Of a DNA stretch of 64,000 nucleotides, positions 7,528 through 64,000 are shown piece by piece. Position 1 is the first letter of the stretch. Each line of letters begins with the position of its first letter. The notes beneath the pieces were generated by a model, which worked only from the letters and a program-made list of their open reading frames with translations, did not search any database and was not told the origin of the DNA. Both the position numbers and the translations under genes were made by a program. Origin of the DNA: an uncultured Gammaproteobacteria bacterium (GTDB lineage: Bacteria; Pseudomonadota; Gammaproteobacteria; Steroidobacterales; Steroidobacteraceae); NCBI GenBank assembly GCA_963707565.1, contig CAVPQN010000002.1, forward strand, positions 401,756-465,755, written 5' to 3'.

Positions 7528-9346
7528 TTACCAGCCGCACTGGCGGTCGCGGTTCTGCTCGTCCAGCCAGCCCATCAGCGGCTGGAAGTACTCGATGAGG
7601 GCCGAGGCATCCATTTGACGGGTACCAGTCAGCTTCTCCAGCGCATCCTGCCATGGCTGGCTGGCGCCCAGCGCGAGCATCTCACGGAATCGCCGGCCCG
7701 CCTCTTTGTTGCCGTAGACCGAGCACTCATGCAGCGGGCCCTTGAAGCCTGCCGCATCACACAGCGCCTTGTGGAACTGGAACTGCAGCACAAAGGCAAG
7801 GAAGTAGCGTGTGTAGGGCGTATTGCCCGGCACGTGGTACTTGGCGCCGGGGTCGAAGTCCGCCTCAGTGCGGGCGATGGCGGGTGCAATGCCCTGGTAC
7901 TTGCGACGCAGTTCCCACCAGGCTTCGTTGTATTTCTCCGGCGGGATGGCGCCTGAAAATACGCCCCAGCGCCACTGGTCAATCAGCTTGCCGAAAGGCA
8001 GGAAGGCAATCTTCTCGGAGGCAACCTTCATCTGGCGATTGATCAGCGACTGTGGGCTGCTCTTCTGGCCAGCCGGCAGCAGGCCCTGACCGACCAAATA
8101 GTCCTCGGTCATCGACAGGTTGATGGTATCGCCCAGCGCCTCGTGGAAGCCGTCGTGCGCACCGGTGCGCAACAGGTAGGGCTTGTCCTGGTACATCAGG
8201 TAGTAATAGACGTGCCCAAGCTCGTGGTAGACGGTGTAGAGGTCTTCTTCGCTGACCTCGATACATTGCTTGATGCGGACGTCCTCGGGGTCGGCCATGT
8301 CCCAGGCGCTGGCGTAACAGACCACGTCGCGATCACGCGGCCGTGCAAACAGTGACTTCTGCCAGAACGAATCGGGCAAGCTGGAAAAGCCGAGGGACAG
8401 GTAAAACTCCTCGGCCGAGCGAACCATGCGCAGGGCGTCGAATCCCTGCTTCTTCAGCCCGGCGGTGACATCGAGAGCGGAGACACCCGGATACGGCTCC
8501 AGCAGGTCGAAGATATTGTTCCACTGCTGCGCCCACATGTTTCCAAACAGGTGGGCGGGGACGGGCTGGCCATCAGGGACCCGGTCCTTGCCATATTTCT
8601 TCTGCAGCACGCCGCGCGCATAGCAATGCATGCCGTCGTACAGCGGCTTCATCTGGTTCCACAGGCGCTCGGTCTCGGACTCAAACTCCGCCGCGCTCAT
8701 GTCATAGCCGGATCGCCACATCGCTCCGAGGTCGTCGAAGCCCAATTCGGTGGCCCCCTCGTTGGCCAGCTCAACGAAGCGCTGGTAGTCGTCGCGCATG
8801 GGCGCGCTGAGGGAGTGCCAGCCGGTCCAGGCGGCCAACTGCTCATCGTAGTCACGGCTCTCCACCAGCGTGCGCGACAGGTCCTCGAAGTTGCGGCAGC
8901 TTTCCGGCCCGGACGGACAGAAGCGCCCGGAGCTGTAGGCGGACTCCATGGCCGCCAGGATGCCGGCAAGCTCGGCGCGCTTGGCCGCATCAGCGGGTGC
9001 CGGTGCTGCGGACCCCTGTCAGCAGGCGGCCAAGGATGCGCGCGGATTCGGCGGACATGGCCTGGCCACTGTACTGGCGCGACGTGGCTACTGCGGCCGA
9101 GTGGTAGGCGAGATAACGCTCATTGGCCTGGGCCGCCAGCGCCTCCGTGTCACTGGTGATGAAGTTCTGCTGCACCCAGTTGGCGTGCTGGGATTCATAA
9201 CCAAATTTCTCTATCTCCGCATTGGCCCGCGCGGCGAATTGGTCGGCGGTTTCGGCAGGCGGTGACTTGCCACAGCCCACCAGGGCACCCAGTGCGACGA
9301 GGGTGCAAGCCAGAGTGCGTAGGCGCAGCGAGGTCGGGCTAGACAT
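7528..9346 (-). pseudogene. M2-family (ACE-like) zinc dipeptidyl carboxypeptidase lipoprotein, copy 1, interrupted by a 1-nt frameshift
   Basis: ORF 8990..9346 encodes the lipoprotein signal (LVGC lipobox) and the N-terminus. ORF 7528..8949 encodes the rest, with intact HELGH and HEALGD zinc motifs. The two frames join seamlessly at a C4/G4 run (9013..9016) when aligned to copies 2 and 3. Confidence 0.75.
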
Positions 9347-57079: not shown

Positions 57080-57205
57080 TCGGGAATGCTCAGGACTCCC
57101 TCAGGATTCGTAGGGGCTTTGCACCCGATTAGTCTTTTGGATTAGGCATCACTAGTCCAAGCGATCAGGAGTACACGCCCGATGTCAGGGAAAGAGGGAC
57201 GGCAC

Positions 57206-57682
57206 ATGAAGATGAGTTTACGGGTCCTGTTGGCCAGCGCCCTGCTGGTGCTGGGCACCGCCCATGCTGCAGGCGGCCTGCAGCTGAGCAACCAGGTCTT
57301 CCAGGAAATCGAGGTCATCGGCGCGGACGGCAAGCCCGAACGCAAGAGAATTCCCGCCGCCACCATCGTGCCCGGGACCGAGGTGTTCTACGTGATCACC
57401 TACCGCAACACGGGCGACCAGCCCGCCGACAACGTTGCCATCACCAATCCGGTGCCAACCGAACTTGAATTCGTGGGAGTGCAGGGACCCGGGCCCACCA
57501 GCGAGGTTTCCGTAGATGGCGGGCAGTTGTTTGGCGCCCTGGCCGGCCTCTCGGTTACCGGTGTCGATGGCAAGTCACGTCAGGCGCAGACGCGAGACGT
57601 GACCCATGTGCGCTGGGTGCTCAACAACACCTTGCCGCCCGGTGCGGGCGGCGCAGTTTCGTTCAAGGCCCGGCTGAAGTAG
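57206..57682 (+). CDS. Secreted DUF11-fold protein (158 aa)
   Basis: Signal peptide MKMSLRVLLASALLVLGTAHA. DUF11 core VPGTEVFYVITYRNTGDQPADNVAITNPVPTELEFVG. SD-like GAGGGA lies 6 nt before the ATG. Confidence 0.8.
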   Translation: MKMSLRVLLASALLVLGTAHAAGGLQLSNQVFQEIEVIGADGKPERKRIPAATIVPGTEVFYVITYRNTGDQPADNVAITNPVPTELEFVGVQGPGPTSEVSVDGGQLFGALAGLSVTGVDGKSRQAQTRDVTHVRWVLNNTLPPGAGGAVSFKARLK

Positions 57683-57729
57683 CCGGCTGAGTTTTTGCAG
57701 AACCGACGCTTTTGCAAGGAGTGCGAGCA

Positions 57730-58830
57730 GTGAAATCCATATATCCAAGAGTCCTGGTAGCGATCCTGATGCTGGCAGGCGTACAGCAGGCGCAAGCCCT
57801 GGGTACGCTGCAAGGCACCAACGTTGCCAACACGGCCACCGTGAACTACACGGTCGGCGGTGTCCCCCAGCCGGGGGTGCCCAGCAATACGACGAACTTC
57901 CTGGTGGACCGGCGCATCAACCTGACAGTCGCGGAGGTGGGCGGTCTCGCCACCAACGTGATTCCAGGCGCGATTGACCGGGTCACTATGTTTACCGTGA
58001 CCAACACGACCAACGGCACCCAGGACTTTCGCCTGATCGCGACCAACGACGCCGCAGGCGCCGGCACGGCGTTTGGCAACACTGACAACTTCGACGGATC
58101 GAATATCCGCGTCTTTGTCGACAACGGCAACGGCATCTACGAGCCGGCGCTGGACACGGCAACGTTCATCGATGAGCTTGGCGCGGACCAGACCCGGACG
58201 GTGTTCGTCCTGATAGACATCCCGGTCACCCAGGTGAACGGCGACATCGCCGGCGTCACCCTGCAAGCGCGCGCGGCTAACGCCGGCGGCGCGAGTGTGC
58301 TGGGTGCCGATGCGACGCAGACTGCCGGTGCAGATACGCCGGGCGTGGTCGACACCGTATTCGGTGACGCCGCTGGCGCGCCGAACACCGCGGGCGACCT
58401 GGCGCGTGACGGCAGCCATAGTGATGACGACGAGTACGCCGTGGTTACGGCGGCGCTGACGGTCATCAAGAGCCAGGCCGTCATCAGCGACCCGTTCAAT
58501 GGCGCGGTCAACCCGAAGGCGATTCCCGGCGCGGTGATCGAGTATTGCATTGACATCAATAACACCGGCGCCACGCAGGCCGATGCCATCGTGATGACCG
58601 ATGCGATTCCCGCCAACACGACCTACCAGCCGGCCTCGATCCGGGTGGCGGCGGCTGGCGCAGGCACGACTTGCACCAGCGGCAGCGGCACGGCTGAGGA
58701 TGACGACGCTGCCGGTGTGGGCGATGCCGGCGACTTCAACGTGACGACGGCAGGCGCTGTCACGGTGCGCGGCGGCAACATTGCGGCGGCGACACGCTAC
58801 AAGGCCTTGTTCCGCGTCACCGTGAACTGA
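57730..58830 (+). CDS. Secreted DUF11-fold protein (366 aa), putative fibre/surface subunit
   Basis: GTG start 8 nt after AGGAG. Signal peptide VKSIYPRVLVAILMLAGVQQAQA. C-terminal DUF11 core AIPGAVIEYCIDINNTGATQADAIVMTDAIPANTTY. Confidence 0.8.
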   Translation: MKSIYPRVLVAILMLAGVQQAQALGTLQGTNVANTATVNYTVGGVPQPGVPSNTTNFLVDRRINLTVAEVGGLATNVIPGAIDRVTMFTVTNTTNGTQDFRLIATNDAAGAGTAFGNTDNFDGSNIRVFVDNGNGIYEPALDTATFIDELGADQTRTVFVLIDIPVTQVNGDIAGVTLQARAANAGGASVLGADATQTAGADTPGVVDTVFGDAAGAPNTAGDLARDGSHSDDDEYAVVTAALTVIKSQAVISDPFNGAVNPKAIPGAVIEYCIDINNTGATQADAIVMTDAIPANTTYQPASIRVAAAGAGTTCTSGSGTAEDDDAAGVGDAGDFNVTTAGAVTVRGGNIAAATRYKALFRVTVN

Positions 58831-58904: not shown

Positions 58905-61900
58905 ATGCACGCGAGCAATGCTGGAAATCGATGGCTGGGCATTACGGCAACACTGTTGCTGGCGCTGGTCATCGCCCCGGCATCGGCAGTTACCATCAGC
59001 AATACGGCGACAGTTTCCTTCCTGGATGGCCCGACGCCGCGCAATATCACCAGCAACACCGTCACGCTGGAAACCATTCCGCCACCGGCGCCCGCCATTG
59101 TTGAATTCCTGCGCTTTGCCCCGGGGTCGCCGGGCAGCGTCGCCACACCGGCCGATGGCGGTTCCTGCCAGGACGGCATGGGAGCTTTCAGTCCACTACC
59201 GCCGGTAACGGATTCTGCCGGCGCCAACATCAATGTCGTGTCGGCGCCGATCTTCGATGCCGCCTCATTCCAGCTGGGCGAGGCCGTTTTCGTGCGCCTG
59301 ACCGACGCCAACCGCAACCTCGATCCCTTGCTGCGGGATTTCATCGACCTGCGCATCACCACCAGTACCGGCGATGAGGAAGTCCTGCGCCTGCAGGAAA
59401 CCGCGATCGATACCGGTATGTTTGTCACGGCCTTGCAGGGCGTTGCCATGCCGCCGGCGGCAACACGTTTTGATTGCCGCCTTTCGGTGGTCCAGGGCGC
59501 CAGCCTGCTGGTGGAGTACATCGACATCCTGTTTCCGGCCGACATGGCGCAGGACAGCGCCCTGGTCGATCCCTTCGGCGTCGTCTTTGATTCCTCCACC
59601 GGCGCACCGGTCAATGGCGTGACGGTAAACTTGCTGGATGCCTTGACCGGCCTGCCGGCGACGGTGTTCGGTGTCGACGGCAGCAGCAGTTATCCGTCGA
59701 CGGTTAGCAGCGGCGCAGTGGTGAGCGATGCCAGTGGCCGCAGCTACACCCAGCCACCGGGCGGCTTCCAGTTTCCGGTGGTGGCGCCGGGCACCTACAT
59801 CCTGCAAGTGACGCCGCCTGCCACCTATGGCGCGCCGTCCGTGGTAGCGCTGGTCGTGTTGCAGGCGCTGCTTGATCCGGCGGGCAATCCCTACGTGGTC
59901 GGTCAGGGCTCCTTCGGTGACGCCTTCGCGCGTCCGGCAGCGCCAGGCTTCCGCGTGGACATCCCGATTGACCCCGTGCAGACCGGCCTGCTGCTGCAAA
60001 AGCGCGCCTCCACGACGGAAGTCTCGGCCGGAGAATTCCTGCAATACCGGCTGACACTGCAGAACCTCAATACCGTTGGTGCAATCGTCAATGCCGAGAT
60101 CAGCGACACGCTGCCGCCGGGCTTGCGCTACCAGGCCGGCTCGCTGCGTATCGCCGGCCAGCCGGCAGCGGACCCCATCATCAGCGCCGATGGACAGGGT
60201 TTGACCATTGCCGTGGGCACCCTCGTCGGGGGTGGCGTGGTCGATGTCAGTTACGTTGTCCAGGTCAGCGCCGGCGCACACGCCGGCGACGCGATCAACC
60301 GTGCGACCGCCACCGCCAGTGGTGGGCTCGAGTCCAATGTGGCGGTGGCTGCGGTACGCATCCGTGAGCCATTCTTCAGCGGTCAGTTCACCATCATCGG
60401 CCGCGTGGTCGAGGGCGAGTGCAATACGCCCTGGCATGAACTGAAAGGCGTGCCGCAAGTGCGCATGCTGCTCGACGATGGCACCTACGTGCCCACTGAC
60501 CGCGATGGCCAGTTCCACTTTGAGGGCGTCCGGCCCGGCACGCACGTGGTGCAACTGGACCTCGACAGCCTACCCCCCGAGCTGGAGGTGACGCCGTGCC
60601 TCCAGAACAGTCGCTTTGCTGGGCGCTCGTTCTCGCAGTTCGTGGAAGCGCAGGGCGGCAGCCTGTGGCGCACCGACTTCTACCTGCGCCGGCGCGATGG
60701 CCAGGTCGGCATTCGCCTGCATAGCGCGCTGGTGGCAGAGGATGTGGGTGGCGCGTTGGCCTTCCGCATGGAACTGGATGGTGGCCGGGTTGCCGTGCAG
60801 AAACTGGCGGCCACCGCGCAGCTGCCGGAGGGCGTGAGTTTCACTCCGGGTAGCGCGCGTGTGGATGGTGTCGCAGTCGCTGATCCGGTGTTCGCGGATG
60901 GTTACCTTACCTTCCGTCTTGGCGATCCTGGCGCCCATTGGCGCCACGTCATTGAGTTTGGCGGCCGTGCGGCAGGTGCCGTCAGGCCTGGTGAGGTCCG
61001 TGAGCACACGCTGCGCGCGCAGTTCGACTCAGGCATGGCCAGCCTCAAGCCGGAAGGCGCGGTCGCAGTGAACGACCTCATCGCCACGCTGCAGGGCACA
61101 AGCATCAGGCGCATAGCCGTGGTGGGGCACACTGACCGCCAGTTGCTGACCGCCGCTCGCACAAAGATCTTCGCCGACAACATCGTGTTGTCGCAGGCGC
61201 GTGCCCAGACTGTGGCGCAAGCGCTGGCCAGGGGCCTTGGCATGTCGATGGAGCAGTTCAGCACCGACGGCAAGGGCCCGGGCGAGCCGCTGGTGGTCGA
61301 GGACACACCGGCGGACAGGGCCGTCAATCGCCGCGTTGACGTCATCGTCTTCAGTGAGGATGCTGAGACCATTGCGGGACTGGACTGCCCGACGGGGGGC
61401 TACTTGAGCAAGGCGGTGGCGAGCTTCGTCCTGGCGGACAAGGCGAGTGCGCGTACGCCGATGGCAGAAAGTGCGCTGGCCTGTGTGGCAGTGACGGAGC
61501 GCAGCGAGAGCGACAGCCATCGTCAGGCGACCACCGTGACCGGCGCGGGTGAGTTGCTTGACGCTGCAGCCACCACCCAGCAAGCACAAGTCCGGCGGCA
61601 GGCCATTGTCGGCAGCGCGCAAGCCGCCGGCGCCGAGACCAACTGGCTGGACCAGCAATCGCCGGGCATGGCGTGGCTGTTTCCTGCTGCTGGCCACAAT
61701 CCCCGCGCACCCACACAGCGCGTGGTGATCAAGCATGAGCCCGGCCAGACCGTGGCCCTGAAATACCGGGGCCAGGCGGTGGACCCGCTGAATTTTGATG
61801 GCACGCGAAGCGACGCAGCGCAAACCGTGGCCATCAGCAGCTGGCGTGGCCTGCCACTGCGCGATGGCGAAAACTATTTCACCGCCGAGGTGATGGACGC

Positions 61901-64000
61901 GCACGGTGCAGTCGTCAGGACGTTGTCCCATACCGTGCACTATGCCAACCAGGTGGCTCGCGCCGAGCTGGTGCCCGAAGAGTCGGTGCTGGTGGCCGAT
62001 GGCCTGCAGCGCCCGGTGATCGCAGTGCGCATGCTGGATCGCAGTGGCCACCCGGTGCGCCACGGCGTGACCGGCGCTTATCGCCTGAATGCGCCCTACG
62101 TGGCCGCGCCACAGCTTGATGGCGAGCAGCAGCGACAACTGGCTGGCCTCGATCGCCACTCGCCCACCTTCCGTATCGAGGGTGACAATGGCGTGGCCTA
62201 TATCGAACTGGCACCGACCACGGCCAGTGGCAGCGTGGTGCTGGGCTTCAGCTTCCCGCGGGATGAGCGCACCACGCACAACGCAGAGTTGCGGGTCTGG
62301 CTTGAGGCGCAGCCGCGCGACTGGGTGGTGGTCGGCTTCGCTGCGGGAACCGTCGCCTACAACACCCTGAGCGGCAACATGCAGGCGCTTGCGGGATCGG
62401 GCGAGGAGGACGGCGGATACACCGACGGCCAGGTGAGCCTGTATGCCAAGGGCCAGGTGCTCGGCAAGTGGCTGCTGACGCTCGCCTATGACTCCAGCAA
62501 GCCCACCGGGCGGCAGGGCCGCAGCAGCGTGCTTTCGACCATCGACCCGAATTCCTTCTACACGCTTTATGGTGATGGCAGCGGCCAGCTTTACGATGGC
62601 GCGAGCGCCGAGAAGCTGTACCTGAAGCTGGAACGCGACCAGTTCTATGCGCTGGTGGGTGACTACGAGACCGGCCTCGACCAAACCGAGCTGTCGCGCT
62701 ATAGCCGCACGCTGACGGGCATCAAGAGCGAGTTCCGTGGTGAGCGCATCAGCTTCACCGGCTTTGTTGCCGATACCGCGCAGAATTTTGCCCGCGATGA
62801 GATCCACGGCAACGGCACCTCGGGCCTGTACCGGCTGAGCCGCGGTCGCATCGTCATCAATGGCGAGCAGCTGCGCATCGAGACCCGCGACCGCTTCCGC
62901 TCGGAGATCATCGTCAGCAGCCGCCAGCTCCGGCGCCATCTCGACTACGACATCGACTATGACGCCGGCACGCTTCTCTTCCGCGAGCCGATCAATAGCC
63001 GCGACTTCAACTTCAATCCGATCTTCATCGTTGCCGAGTACGAAACCGTCGGCACTGCTGACAAGCACCTGAATGCGGGTGGTCGTATCGGCGTACAGCT
63101 GCTGGATGACAGGTTGAGTATGGGCGCCACGTTGCTGCGCGATGAGGCGGCACAGGGCAAGTCCAACCTCGGCGGTATCGACGCGAAGTTCCAGATCACC
63201 CCTGAAACTGAATTGCGCATCGAGGGCGCAATGAGTGATGGCTCGCTGTCGAATCGCGATGGCAGCGCCTACCTGGCAGAAGTCGAGCACCATAGCGGGA
63301 CGCTGGATGCGCTGGCCTATGTGCGACGCCAGTCGCCCGGATTCGGCGTGAATCAGCAAAATGCCGCCGAGGGCGGCACGCTCAAGGCCGGCCTCGACGC
63401 CCAGTTGCGCCTGAACGAGTGGCTGGCGGTGCAGGGTCAGGTGTATCGCGAGGAGAATCTGGACAGTGCGACGACGCGTGAAGTTGCAACCACCGGGCTG
63501 GAGTACCGCGGGGAACACTGGGGCGTGCGCGCCGGCGCACAGCTTGCGCAGGACGAGGCGATCACTGGCGAGAAGGCGGAGTCCCGCCAGGTCACGGTGG
63601 GCGCACATCGACGTTTCCTGGACCAGAAACTTGAGCTGATGATGCAGAACGAGTTCAGCCTCGGCGGCGACAATGACAGCGTGGACTTTCCCAGCCGTTA
63701 CCGGCTCGGCGCGGCCTACGCCCTCAGCGAGGATGTGCGCCTGGTGGCTTCCCACGAGATCACCGATGGCGAGGACTTCGACAGCTCGACCACGCGCCTG
63801 GGGGTGGAAGTGAAACCCTGGAAGGGCGCGCGACTGAGCAGCACCCTGAACCAGAGCGAGATTTCGGAATACGGGCCGCGCACGTTTGCGCTGTTCGGCC
63901 TGACCCAGTCCTTGCTGGTGGGTGAGCGTTGGGGTTTTGATCTGTCCACCGATGCCAGTCACACCATGGACCACGCCAGCACCGCACCCCTGGTGATCAA
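58905..64000 (+). CDS. Giant secreted multidomain protein (>1698 aa, 3' end outside window): DUF11 repeats, CarboxypepD_reg-like modules, internal OmpA-like domain, C-terminal beta-barrel-like region
   Basis: By my reading this plus-strand frame stays open from ATG 58905 to the window edge, so it is not in the ORF track. Signal peptide MHASNAGNRWLGITATLLLALVIAPASA. DUF11 core VSAGEFLQYRLTLQNLNTVGAIVNAEISDTLPPGLRY. OmpA block RRIAVVGHTDRQ...LSQARAQTVAQAL...ADRAVNRRVDVIVF. Confidence 0.85.
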   Translation, partial: MHASNAGNRWLGITATLLLALVIAPASAVTISNTATVSFLDGPTPRNITSNTVTLETIPPPAPAIVEFLRFAPGSPGSVATPADGGSCQDGMGAFSPLPPVTDSAGANINVVSAPIFDAASFQLGEAVFVRLTDANRNLDPLLRDFIDLRITTSTGDEEVLRLQETAIDTGMFVTALQGVAMPPAATRFDCRLSVVQGASLLVEYIDILFPADMAQDSALVDPFGVVFDSSTGAPVNGVTVNLLDALTGLPATVFGVDGSSSYPSTVSSGAVVSDASGRSYTQPPGGFQFPVVAPGTYILQVTPPATYGAPSVVALVVLQALLDPAGNPYVVGQGSFGDAFARPAAPGFRVDIPIDPVQTGLLLQKRASTTEVSAGEFLQYRLTLQNLNTVGAIVNAEISDTLPPGLRYQAGSLRIAGQPAADPIISADGQGLTIAVGTLVGGGVVDVSYVVQVSAGAHAGDAINRATATASGGLESNVAVAAVRIREPFFSGQFTIIGRVVEGECNTPWHELKGVPQVRMLLDDGTYVPTDRDGQFHFEGVRPGTHVVQLDLDSLPPELEVTPCLQNSRFAGRSFSQFVEAQGGSLWRTDFYLRRRDGQVGIRLHSALVAEDVGGALAFRMELDGGRVAVQKLAATAQLPEGVSFTPGSARVDGVAVADPVFADGYLTFRLGDPGAHWRHVIEFGGRAAGAVRPGEVREHTLRAQFDSGMASLKPEGAVAVNDLIATLQGTSIRRIAVVGHTDRQLLTAARTKIFADNIVLSQARAQTVAQALARGLGMSMEQFSTDGKGPGEPLVVEDTPADRAVNRRVDVIVFSEDAETIAGLDCPTGGYLSKAVASFVLADKASARTPMAESALACVAVTERSESDSHRQATTVTGAGELLDAAATTQQAQVRRQAIVGSAQAAGAETNWLDQQSPGMAWLFPAAGHNPRAPTQRVVIKHEPGQTVALKYRGQAVDPLNFDGTRSDAAQTVAISSWRGLPLRDGENYFTAEVMDAHGAVVRTLSHTVHYANQVARAELVPEESVLVADGLQRPVIAVRMLDRSGHPVRHGVTGAYRLNAPYVAAPQLDGEQQRQLAGLDRHSPTFRIEGDNGVAYIELAPTTASGSVVLGFSFPRDERTTHNAELRVWLEAQPRDWVVVGFAAGTVAYNTLSGNMQALAGSGEEDGGYTDGQVSLYAKGQVLGKWLLTLAYDSSKPTGRQGRSSVLSTIDPNSFYTLYGDGSGQLYDGASAEKLYLKLERDQFYALVGDYETGLDQTELSRYSRTLTGIKSEFRGERISFTGFVADTAQNFARDEIHGNGTSGLYRLSRGRIVINGEQLRIETRDRFRSEIIVSSRQLRRHLDYDIDYDAGTLLFREPINSRDFNFNPIFIVAEYETVGTADKHLNAGGRIGVQLLDDRLSMGATLLRDEAAQGKSNLGGIDAKFQITPETELRIEGAMSDGSLSNRDGSAYLAEVEHHSGTLDALAYVRRQSPGFGVNQQNAAEGGTLKAGLDAQLRLNEWLAVQGQVYREENLDSATTREVATTGLEYRGEHWGVRAGAQLAQDEAITGEKAESRQVTVGAHRRFLDQKLELMMQNEFSLGGDNDSVDFPSRYRLGAAYALSEDVRLVASHEITDGEDFDSSTTRLGVEVKPWKGARLSSTLNQSEISEYGPRTFALFGLTQSLLVGERWGFDLSTDASHTMDHASTAPLVI

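Follow-up and report, generated by a model that had tools for sequence, protein, structure and literature searches.

We analyzed a 64,000-nucleotide stretch of contig CAVPQN010000002.1 (positions 401756-465755; hereafter the window), which derives from an uncultured gammaproteobacterium of the family Steroidobacteraceae, and focused on the giant gene P0002 that runs across its downstream end. The list of open reading frames, their translation and the flanking genome showed that P0002 encodes 1,992 amino acids (aa) on the + strand, from an ATG at window position 58905 to about position 64883. The frame is open from the ATG to the end of the window and continues for about 883 nucleotides (nt) beyond it, to about contig position 466638, which is position 8639 of the flanking-genome record L002. 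The window holds about two thirds of the C-terminal region of P0002, and the last 294 aa, including the final strand, lie beyond it. By structure prediction, residues about 1141-1978 of the protein fold into a single, very large outer-membrane β-barrel with about 38 strands.

The N-terminal part of P0002 is a multi-domain stalk. It begins with a signal peptide, MHASNAGNRWLGITATLLLALVIAPASA (58905..58988, + strand), which was read from the sequence and which homologues share as the same hydrophobic region. Directly after it, the mature N-terminus carries the motif VTISNTATVSF...SNTVTLETI (58989..59084, + strand), a candidate donor segment that giant homologues also retain at their N-termini. 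It looks like the final two strands of a CLIPPER (DUF11) domain and has the same pattern as the giant's internal INRATATA...SNVAVAAVRI. Pfam and NCBIfam matches on the same strand placed the immunoglobulin (Ig)-like stalk modules at 59577..60320, comprising a CarboxypepD_reg-like domain (aa 225-305) and a complete CLIPPER/DUF11 domain (aa 363-472), and also an SdrD_B-like domain in the N-terminal part of the protein. The complete CLIPPER domain contains the triad K366, D401 and N465, whose spacing was compared with the crystal structure of such a domain (PMC12617251). Further along lies an OmpA-like peptidoglycan-binding domain (61023..61331, + strand, aa 707-809; PF00691, E 5e-12), a periplasmic marker that keeps its GHTD and NRRV motifs, and the barrel is preceded by a pre-barrel Ig-like region (61602..62309, + strand, aa 900-1135) that tblastn found conserved in nearly all loci. 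This region is Big_1/invasin-like by feature search only, and the Atlas feature scores of 0.78-0.80 are a lead only. Between the OmpA-like domain and the pre-barrel region, a poorly conserved Ala/Gln/Thr-rich linker with two Cys (window 61330-61600, aa 810-900) could act as a flexible tether.

A preliminary description of this DNA had read the part of the protein from the ELRVWLEAQ motif onward (residue 1128, window 62286) as a large outer-membrane β-barrel with an embedded soluble domain, and structure prediction bore out the barrel. An AlphaFold2 model of residues 1100-1992 (893 aa, with model numbering starting at P0002 residue 1100) reached a mean predicted local distance difference test score (pLDDT) of 80.9 and a predicted template modelling score (pTM) of 0.81, and consisted nearly entirely of β-strands joined by very short turns. 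Every segment that had been listed as a strand falls within a strand of this model, and a soluble repeat fold, which the preliminary description had named as the outcome that would contradict a barrel, was not obtained. The composition of the C-terminal region is also distinct, with 4.2% Tyr compared to 1.8% in the N-terminal 1,100 aa, and with more Trp, Gly and Arg. Furthermore, an alignment of 60 diverse homologues, which we used for conservation and for face averages, showed that in 27 of the 38 strands the two faces are at least 1.5 Kyte-Doolittle units apart, and that the proportion of charged residues is 11% on the hydrophobic face vs 32% on the other face, the charged face of the lumen. 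The 60 homologues also keep the C-terminal β-signal consensus GPYLxLRxKF, followed by a short variable tail; in P0002 the chain ends 14 aa past the last strand.

Comparison with solved structures likewise pointed to a membrane barrel. Foldseek against the PDB returned 130 matches at E <= 1e-3, and all 50 listed matches were β-barrel membrane proteins, including SlpA, MtrB, FimD, SprA, LptD, TonB-dependent receptors and Occ porins. The template modelling (TM) scores of the listed matches were low (<=0.25), as would be expected if none of the matched structures equals the P0002 barrel in size. With VIA-align, four FimD structures ranked on top (Z 15.9-14.4; model residues 36-571 aligned with FimD 133-652 at a root-mean-square deviation (rmsd) near 10 A), with Occ porins close behind (Z 13.7). 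The small barrels OpcA and FadL, and also SlpA and SprA, aligned over model residues 43-878. This range suggests one closed barrel in which the first strand lies next to the last. In addition, an 859-aa look-alike from the Atlas, probably a relative, gave a model that superposed over 769 residues (TM 0.73-0.76), and a 1,009-aa model superposed over 801 residues (TM 0.79). By sequence, neither P0002 alone nor the profile of 60 sequences found a relative among solved structures, and Pfam and NCBIfam searches with the C-terminal 860 aa gave nothing but a sub-threshold OMP_b-brl match. The protein thus carries the general marks of an outer-membrane barrel, namely amphipathic strands, matches to membrane barrels, a signal peptide and a C-terminal β-signal that ends in an aromatic residue, with closure being read from the alignment ranges.

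Past the pre-barrel Ig-like domain, the secondary-structure string of the model contains 39 strand elements. Only one residue lies between two of these (model residues 183-192 and 194-202), which most likely represent one kinked strand. Counting this strand once gives 7 strands before an inserted domain and 31 after it, 38 in total, and we give the strand count as 36-40. Strands 1-7, including the highly conserved FYALVGDYETG hairpin, were assigned to 62325..62807 (+ strand, aa 1141-1301) from AlphaFold2 secondary structure and conservation, and strands 8 to about 26 to 63018..64000 (+ strand, aa 1372-1698) from AlphaFold2, the alignment and face analysis. The window covers about the first 26 strands; the remaining ones, about 12 in number (strands 27-38), and the β-signal PYLTLRFKF (aa 1970-1978) lie beyond it on the same strand and were placed by translation, AlphaFold2 and conservation. 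An even total fits a location of both termini in the periplasm, and under 38-strand parity the long loops of 41, 24, 31 and 15 aa would be on the outer face. From standard barrel geometry, we estimate that a barrel of about 38 strands measures near 7 nm across from backbone to backbone, with a lumen roughly 5-6 nm wide. The largest solved barrel, SprA, has 36 strands (PMC8346858). Solan et al. (2021) used contact maps to predict a superfamily of single barrels that have either 38 or 40 strands (PMC8346858), close to the strand count found here. Unlike the present description of the P0002 family, that paper gives no function, operon context or insert; the P0002 family may be part of this superfamily, with strand count as the sole basis of comparison.

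The domain inserted between strands 7 and 8 is a five-strand β-sandwich (62814..62996, + strand, aa 1304-1364, model residues 205-265), as assigned from AlphaFold2 and conservation. The embedded soluble β-domain of the preliminary description is therefore real, and when modelled alone it folded into a small β-sandwich with a pLDDT of 88.6; however, it comprises 57-65 aa (the part that had been quoted is residues 1307-1363) and not about 90. In the alignment, the insert has a mean column identity of 68% with near-invariant ETRDR and DYDIDY motifs, and the block of model residues 41-280 around it is the best-conserved part of the C-terminal region. Foldseek with the insert alone gave no match at E < 1, and a profile library search gave nothing useful for either the insert or the pre-barrel region. 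When compared with 48,161 chains, the insert best matched N-terminal β-sandwiches of phage tail fibers and adaptors (Z 6.0-4.4), which we treat as a generic resemblance among small sandwiches, and it weakly matched the interior of SprA (Z 4.2). Usher, TonB-receptor and LptD plugs were absent from the best 50 of these chains.

The insert had also been suggested as a possible plug, and this proposal was not supported as it stood. With no such fold match by two methods on the stand-alone model, we rejected the insert as an usher, TonB-receptor or LptD plug, and a role as a closing plug is unsupported because about 60 aa are too small for the estimated lumen of 5-6 nm. Strand parity (7 before, 31 after) would moreover tentatively place the insert on the outer face, opposite the termini. 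We propose with low confidence that it is a docking or gating element at the mouth of the barrel rather than a plug that closes the pore. The insert also contains a near-invariant acidic run, HLDYDIDYDAGT (window 62940-62996, aa 1346-1364), whose DxDxDxD pattern makes it a possible, putative calcium-binding site.

The genes around P0002 encode secreted proteins with related domains. Upstream, and on the same + strand, are a small secreted protein of 166 aa with a single DUF11 domain (57182..57682; PF01345, E 1.6e-6) and the mid-size subunit P0004 of 372 aa (57712..58830), which was defined by the gene list, profile matches and motif positions. The small protein, syntenic in most loci, ends with ...VSFKARLK, and this C-terminal end is conserved. 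P0004 carries NTATVNY...SNTTNFLV at its mature N-terminus, and its C-terminal CLIPPER-like domain (K253, D297) stops after ...FRVTVN, without the Asn strand. Downstream, P0003 (728 aa; about 64880-67066, L002:8636-10822, beyond the window) combines a DUF7933 domain with a truncated CLIPPER-like end. It overlaps the stop codon of the giant gene by 4 nt, which suggests that its translation is coupled to that of the giant. P0003 keeps Lys and Asp (K587, D633) and has neither the Asn strand nor an NTATV-type N-terminus; judged by these motifs, it would be an acceptor only, like a fiber tip.

This arrangement was found in nearly all of about 80 loci, which span alpha-, beta-, gamma- and deltaproteobacteria and Nitrospirota, with the gene order optional mid-size paralogue, small DUF11 protein, mid-size subunit and giant, often followed by a larger tip-like protein with a C-terminus like that of P0003. 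The locus studied here shows the features of this cassette, with a small DUF11 gene and a mid-size gene ahead of the giant, truncated partner ends and NTATV-type N-termini. We compared the acceptor domains with the complete CLIPPER domain by motif positions. All 218 readable partner proteins end right after a strand of the ...FRVTVN-, ...FKARLK- or ...FRVRVE-type, and the Asn-strand motif occurred within the last 30 aa in 1 of 127, 0 of 29 and 0 of 62 partner proteins. Conversely, mid-size subunits and giants start, just past the signal peptide, with the pattern xIxNTAxVxY...SNxVxxxV, the same pattern as in the closing segment of the giant's complete DUF11 domain (K366, D401, N465). The segment absent from the ends of the partner proteins is thus of the kind found at the beginnings of subunits and giants.

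Two known systems bear on how such ends and beginnings might be joined. DUF11 has been renamed CLIPPER, and its crystal structure contains a Lys715-Asn806 isopeptide bond with Asp748 as the catalytic residue and with the Asn in the penultimate strand (PMC12617251). In BsaA, donor-strand exchange is combined with a proposed intermolecular isopeptide lock (PMC11580942). The presence of Lys and Asp without the Asn strand in P0004 and P0003 fits joining in trans, possibly with a covalent lock. We propose that the secreted subunits would reach their folded state in the periplasm and be linked head to tail, with the NTATV...SNxV segment of one chain supplying the two strands that the truncated final domain of the chain before it lacks, and that an isopeptide bond may lock this joint. 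The giant, which has a donor segment and no acceptor domain, would accordingly be the last link that ends and anchors the chain. Its barrel would enter the outer membrane via the β-barrel assembly machinery (BAM) through the C-terminal signal ...GPYLTLRFKF. The wide barrel would let the chain through, and after it the Ig-like stalk of the giant, while the OmpA-like domain would remain on the periplasmic side, acting as a stopper and tethering the protein to the wall. Our analysis shows the predicted barrel, the insert, how large the family is, the synteny, and the truncated ends and N-terminal motifs; the passage of the chain through the barrel, joining in trans and the side and role of the insert are what we infer here. 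On balance, we lean toward the P0002 barrel being the pore and wall-tethered anchor of a split-domain surface fiber. The full scheme is more tentative, and we regard it as plausible but somewhat short of probable: a chaperone-free, pilus-like system in which folded CLIPPER subunits with split-domain joints, probably isopeptide-locked, exit via a barrel of about 38 strands, with the N-terminus of the giant as the last link and the insert docking or gating. With about 38 strands, this barrel would be the largest single-chain outer-membrane barrel yet proposed.

Several observations weigh against a fiber pore. The N-terminal motif could complete the last domain of the subunit's own chain in cis, and no Lys/Asp pattern is present in the 166-aa protein. 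Not all family members have the OmpA-like domain, so wall tethering would not be universal. The likeness to ushers is a structural score slightly above that of porins (Z 15.9 vs 13.7) at an rmsd near 10 A, and the strand count, single-barrel closure and position of the insert were all read from the secondary-structure string and alignment ranges.

The strongest alternative is that P0002 is a tether between outer membrane and cell wall, or a wide porin, like SlpA and OmpM, with its Ig-like modules in the periplasm and no export of a fiber. SlpA, a 30-strand barrel with a wall-binding domain, was indeed the best Foldseek match (E 2e-9); the OmpA-like domain of P0002 is intact, and the turns are very short on both faces, as in sheath-like barrels. 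However, many members of the family, among them those of the Sphingomonadales, have no OmpA-like domain, a donor-type motif is found at the N-terminus of the giant itself, and a tether or porin leaves the strict synteny with secreted subunits bearing donor and acceptor ends unexplained. We consider this explanation unlikely. Deinococcus SlpA (30 strands, with an SLH domain) and OmpM resemble P0002 in joining a wall-binding domain and a large barrel in one chain, but the wall-binding domain of P0002 is OmpA-like and optional rather than SLH, and SlpA has no CLIPPER stalk and no operon of partner subunits.

A second possibility is that P0002 exports only its own N-terminal modules in the manner of an autotransporter, and that its neighbours are independent adhesins. 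The order of the protein, with a signal peptide and passenger-like modules first and the barrel last, and Ig-like repeats typical of adhesins would agree with self-export. Type V secretion barrels, however, have 12-16 strands, compared to about 38 here, no autotransporter profile matched, a peptidoglycan-binding domain sits between the passenger-like part and the barrel, and the partner genes are conserved; we regard self-export as improbable. More broadly, P0002 differs from type V proteins (autotransporters and intimin/invasin), in which a linker connects the passenger straight to the barrel, in having no Pfam match to them and in the OmpA-like and Ig-like domains located between stalk and barrel. 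The preliminary description had concluded that a layout of passenger-like modules, OmpA domain and barrel belongs to neither classical nor inverse autotransporters nor ushers, and the lack of profile matches together with about 38 strands agrees with this.

The about 38 strands could instead represent two tandem barrels or a soluble β-rich repeat. Outer-membrane proteins with several barrels do exist by prediction (PMC8346858), and the usher alignments were limited to model residues 36-571. Against this, a pTM of 0.81 over 893 aa points to one rigid body, several barrels align from model residue 43 to 878, the two Atlas models superpose over 769 and 801 residues, and an rmsd of about 10 A to FimD misfits a closed 24-strand barrel. 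As contact maps also support single barrels of 38 and 40 strands (PMC8346858), we give this reading little credence.

The setting of P0002 recalls that of ushers, yet P0002 is not a member of the usher family. Like the chaperone-usher ushers (FimD, PapC; PF00577), P0002 has a large outer-membrane barrel in an operon with secreted Ig-fold subunits, which are apparently joined by strand complementation, and a small β-domain inserted after the first few strands, in P0002 after strand 7; FimD, moreover, is the best structural match to its barrel (Z 15.9). We compared the P0002 family by hhalign with 13 aligned ushers, of which nine belong to E. coli K-12 and the remaining four to other genomes. 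The result was not significant (probability 1.6%, E 0.031), although the alignment was colinear, with FGDYxTG over the usher LGDxxT and the insert over the plug. By hmmscan, P0002 had no PF00577 Usher, PapC_N or PapC_C match, and the source genome (98% complete) contained neither an Usher nor a PapD-type chaperone match (PF00345 / PapD_N). Ushers also differ in having 24 strands together with PapC_N and PapC_C, compared to about 38 strands, neither domain and no sequence relationship in P0002. Their plug follows strand 6, ahead of strand 7, and faces the periplasm, whereas the P0002 insert has another fold and probably another face, and the P0002 barrel is fused to a 1,100-aa stalk and a wall-binding domain. 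We rejected membership of the usher family because of the non-significant hhalign result. The statement that the layout is unlike that of ushers stands, with the qualification that FimD is the top structural match. A divergent true usher with the insert as a homologue of the usher plug is thus very improbable and largely refuted: the highest Z-scores (FimD, 15.9-14.4) and the colinear order speak for it, but the hhalign and hmmscan results, a genome without usher or PapD-type chaperone, the strand number, the absence of ushers from the 50 best of 48,161 chains and the parity that puts the insert on the opposite face all speak against it.

Other systems share single traits with P0002. SprA/Sov, the 36-strand type IX translocon, is likewise a very large single-chain barrel, wide enough for folded proteins, and it appeared among the Foldseek and VIA-align matches, with the insert as a weak match (Z 4.2). 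It differs in its size of about 2,400 aa, its large extracellular inserts compared to the very short loops of P0002, its presence in another phylum, its cargo system of C-terminal domain signal and PorV, and the lack of sequence similarity. BsaA/TasA-type fibers (PMC11580942) resemble the proposed P0002 system in that an N-terminal segment completes the sheet of the next monomer before a covalent bond forms, but they are Gram-positive, have another fold and involve neither an outer membrane nor a barrel. TonB-dependent receptors and LptD (22- and 26-strand barrels with an N-terminal plug or jelly-roll) are generic matches only (TM <=0.19), and P0002 had no TonB-receptor or LptD Pfam match.

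The barrel is a member of a very large, wholly unannotated family. An exhaustive search at a cut-off of E <= 1e-3 yielded 3,255 clusters (50% identity), 1,247 of them with E <= 1e-30. In these, the barrel domain is nearly always C-terminal in proteins of about 1,000-2,800 aa. A word-based search listed more than 1,200 full-length homologues, which are close relatives that share 54-76% identity over the barrel region and may or may not have an OmpA-like domain; this optional domain is not present in the homologues from Sphingomonadales. At least 589 species genomes contain relatives. The carriers include many Sphingomonadales as well as Lysobacter, Moraxellaceae, Burkholderiales, Steroidobacteraceae, Desulfuromonadales and Nitrospirota, and among the cultured ones are Sphingomonas sp. 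Root710, Sphingomonas faeni and Sphingorhabdus species. Of 401 genomes sampled from the phylum, 49 contained the giant barrel (30 of 212 genera), and the source genome has one copy. That the barrel is part of a very large conserved family with a fixed operon had been missed in the preliminary description, and we found no description of a giant-barrel CLIPPER (DUF11) cassette in the literature searched.

If the proposed fiber route is true, common environmental Proteobacteria, with about one in eight sampled genomes of the phylum carrying the barrel, would make surface fibers outside the chaperone-usher, type IV, type V, curli and sortase routes, and would do so with a barrel larger than any solved. 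A barrel of such size challenges ideas on folding by BAM and on the sealing of a 5-6 nm lumen, and self-locking split CLIPPER domains would be of interest as protein-ligation tools. The cultured carriers make the fiber idea directly testable.

A distant subfamily (G251, G172, G157 and others) of 1,100-1,450 aa matches profile positions 33-455 only, which correspond to the insert and the initial third of the barrel. This portion may constitute the functional core shared by a wider superfamily. We make no claim for free-standing barrels, as the short homologues (850-1,140 aa) have no signal peptide, start in mid-domain and look like gene fragments. In one metagenome-assembled homologue (L003:5979-11081), the giant gene is split into three overlapping frames, of which the 1,026-aa entry is a barrel fragment only, reflecting either frameshift damage or an assembly error. 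Finally, an antisense open reading frame of 981 aa lies opposite the giant gene (window 61029-63974, minus strand) and is most likely an effect of the high G+C content (65%) rather than a gene.

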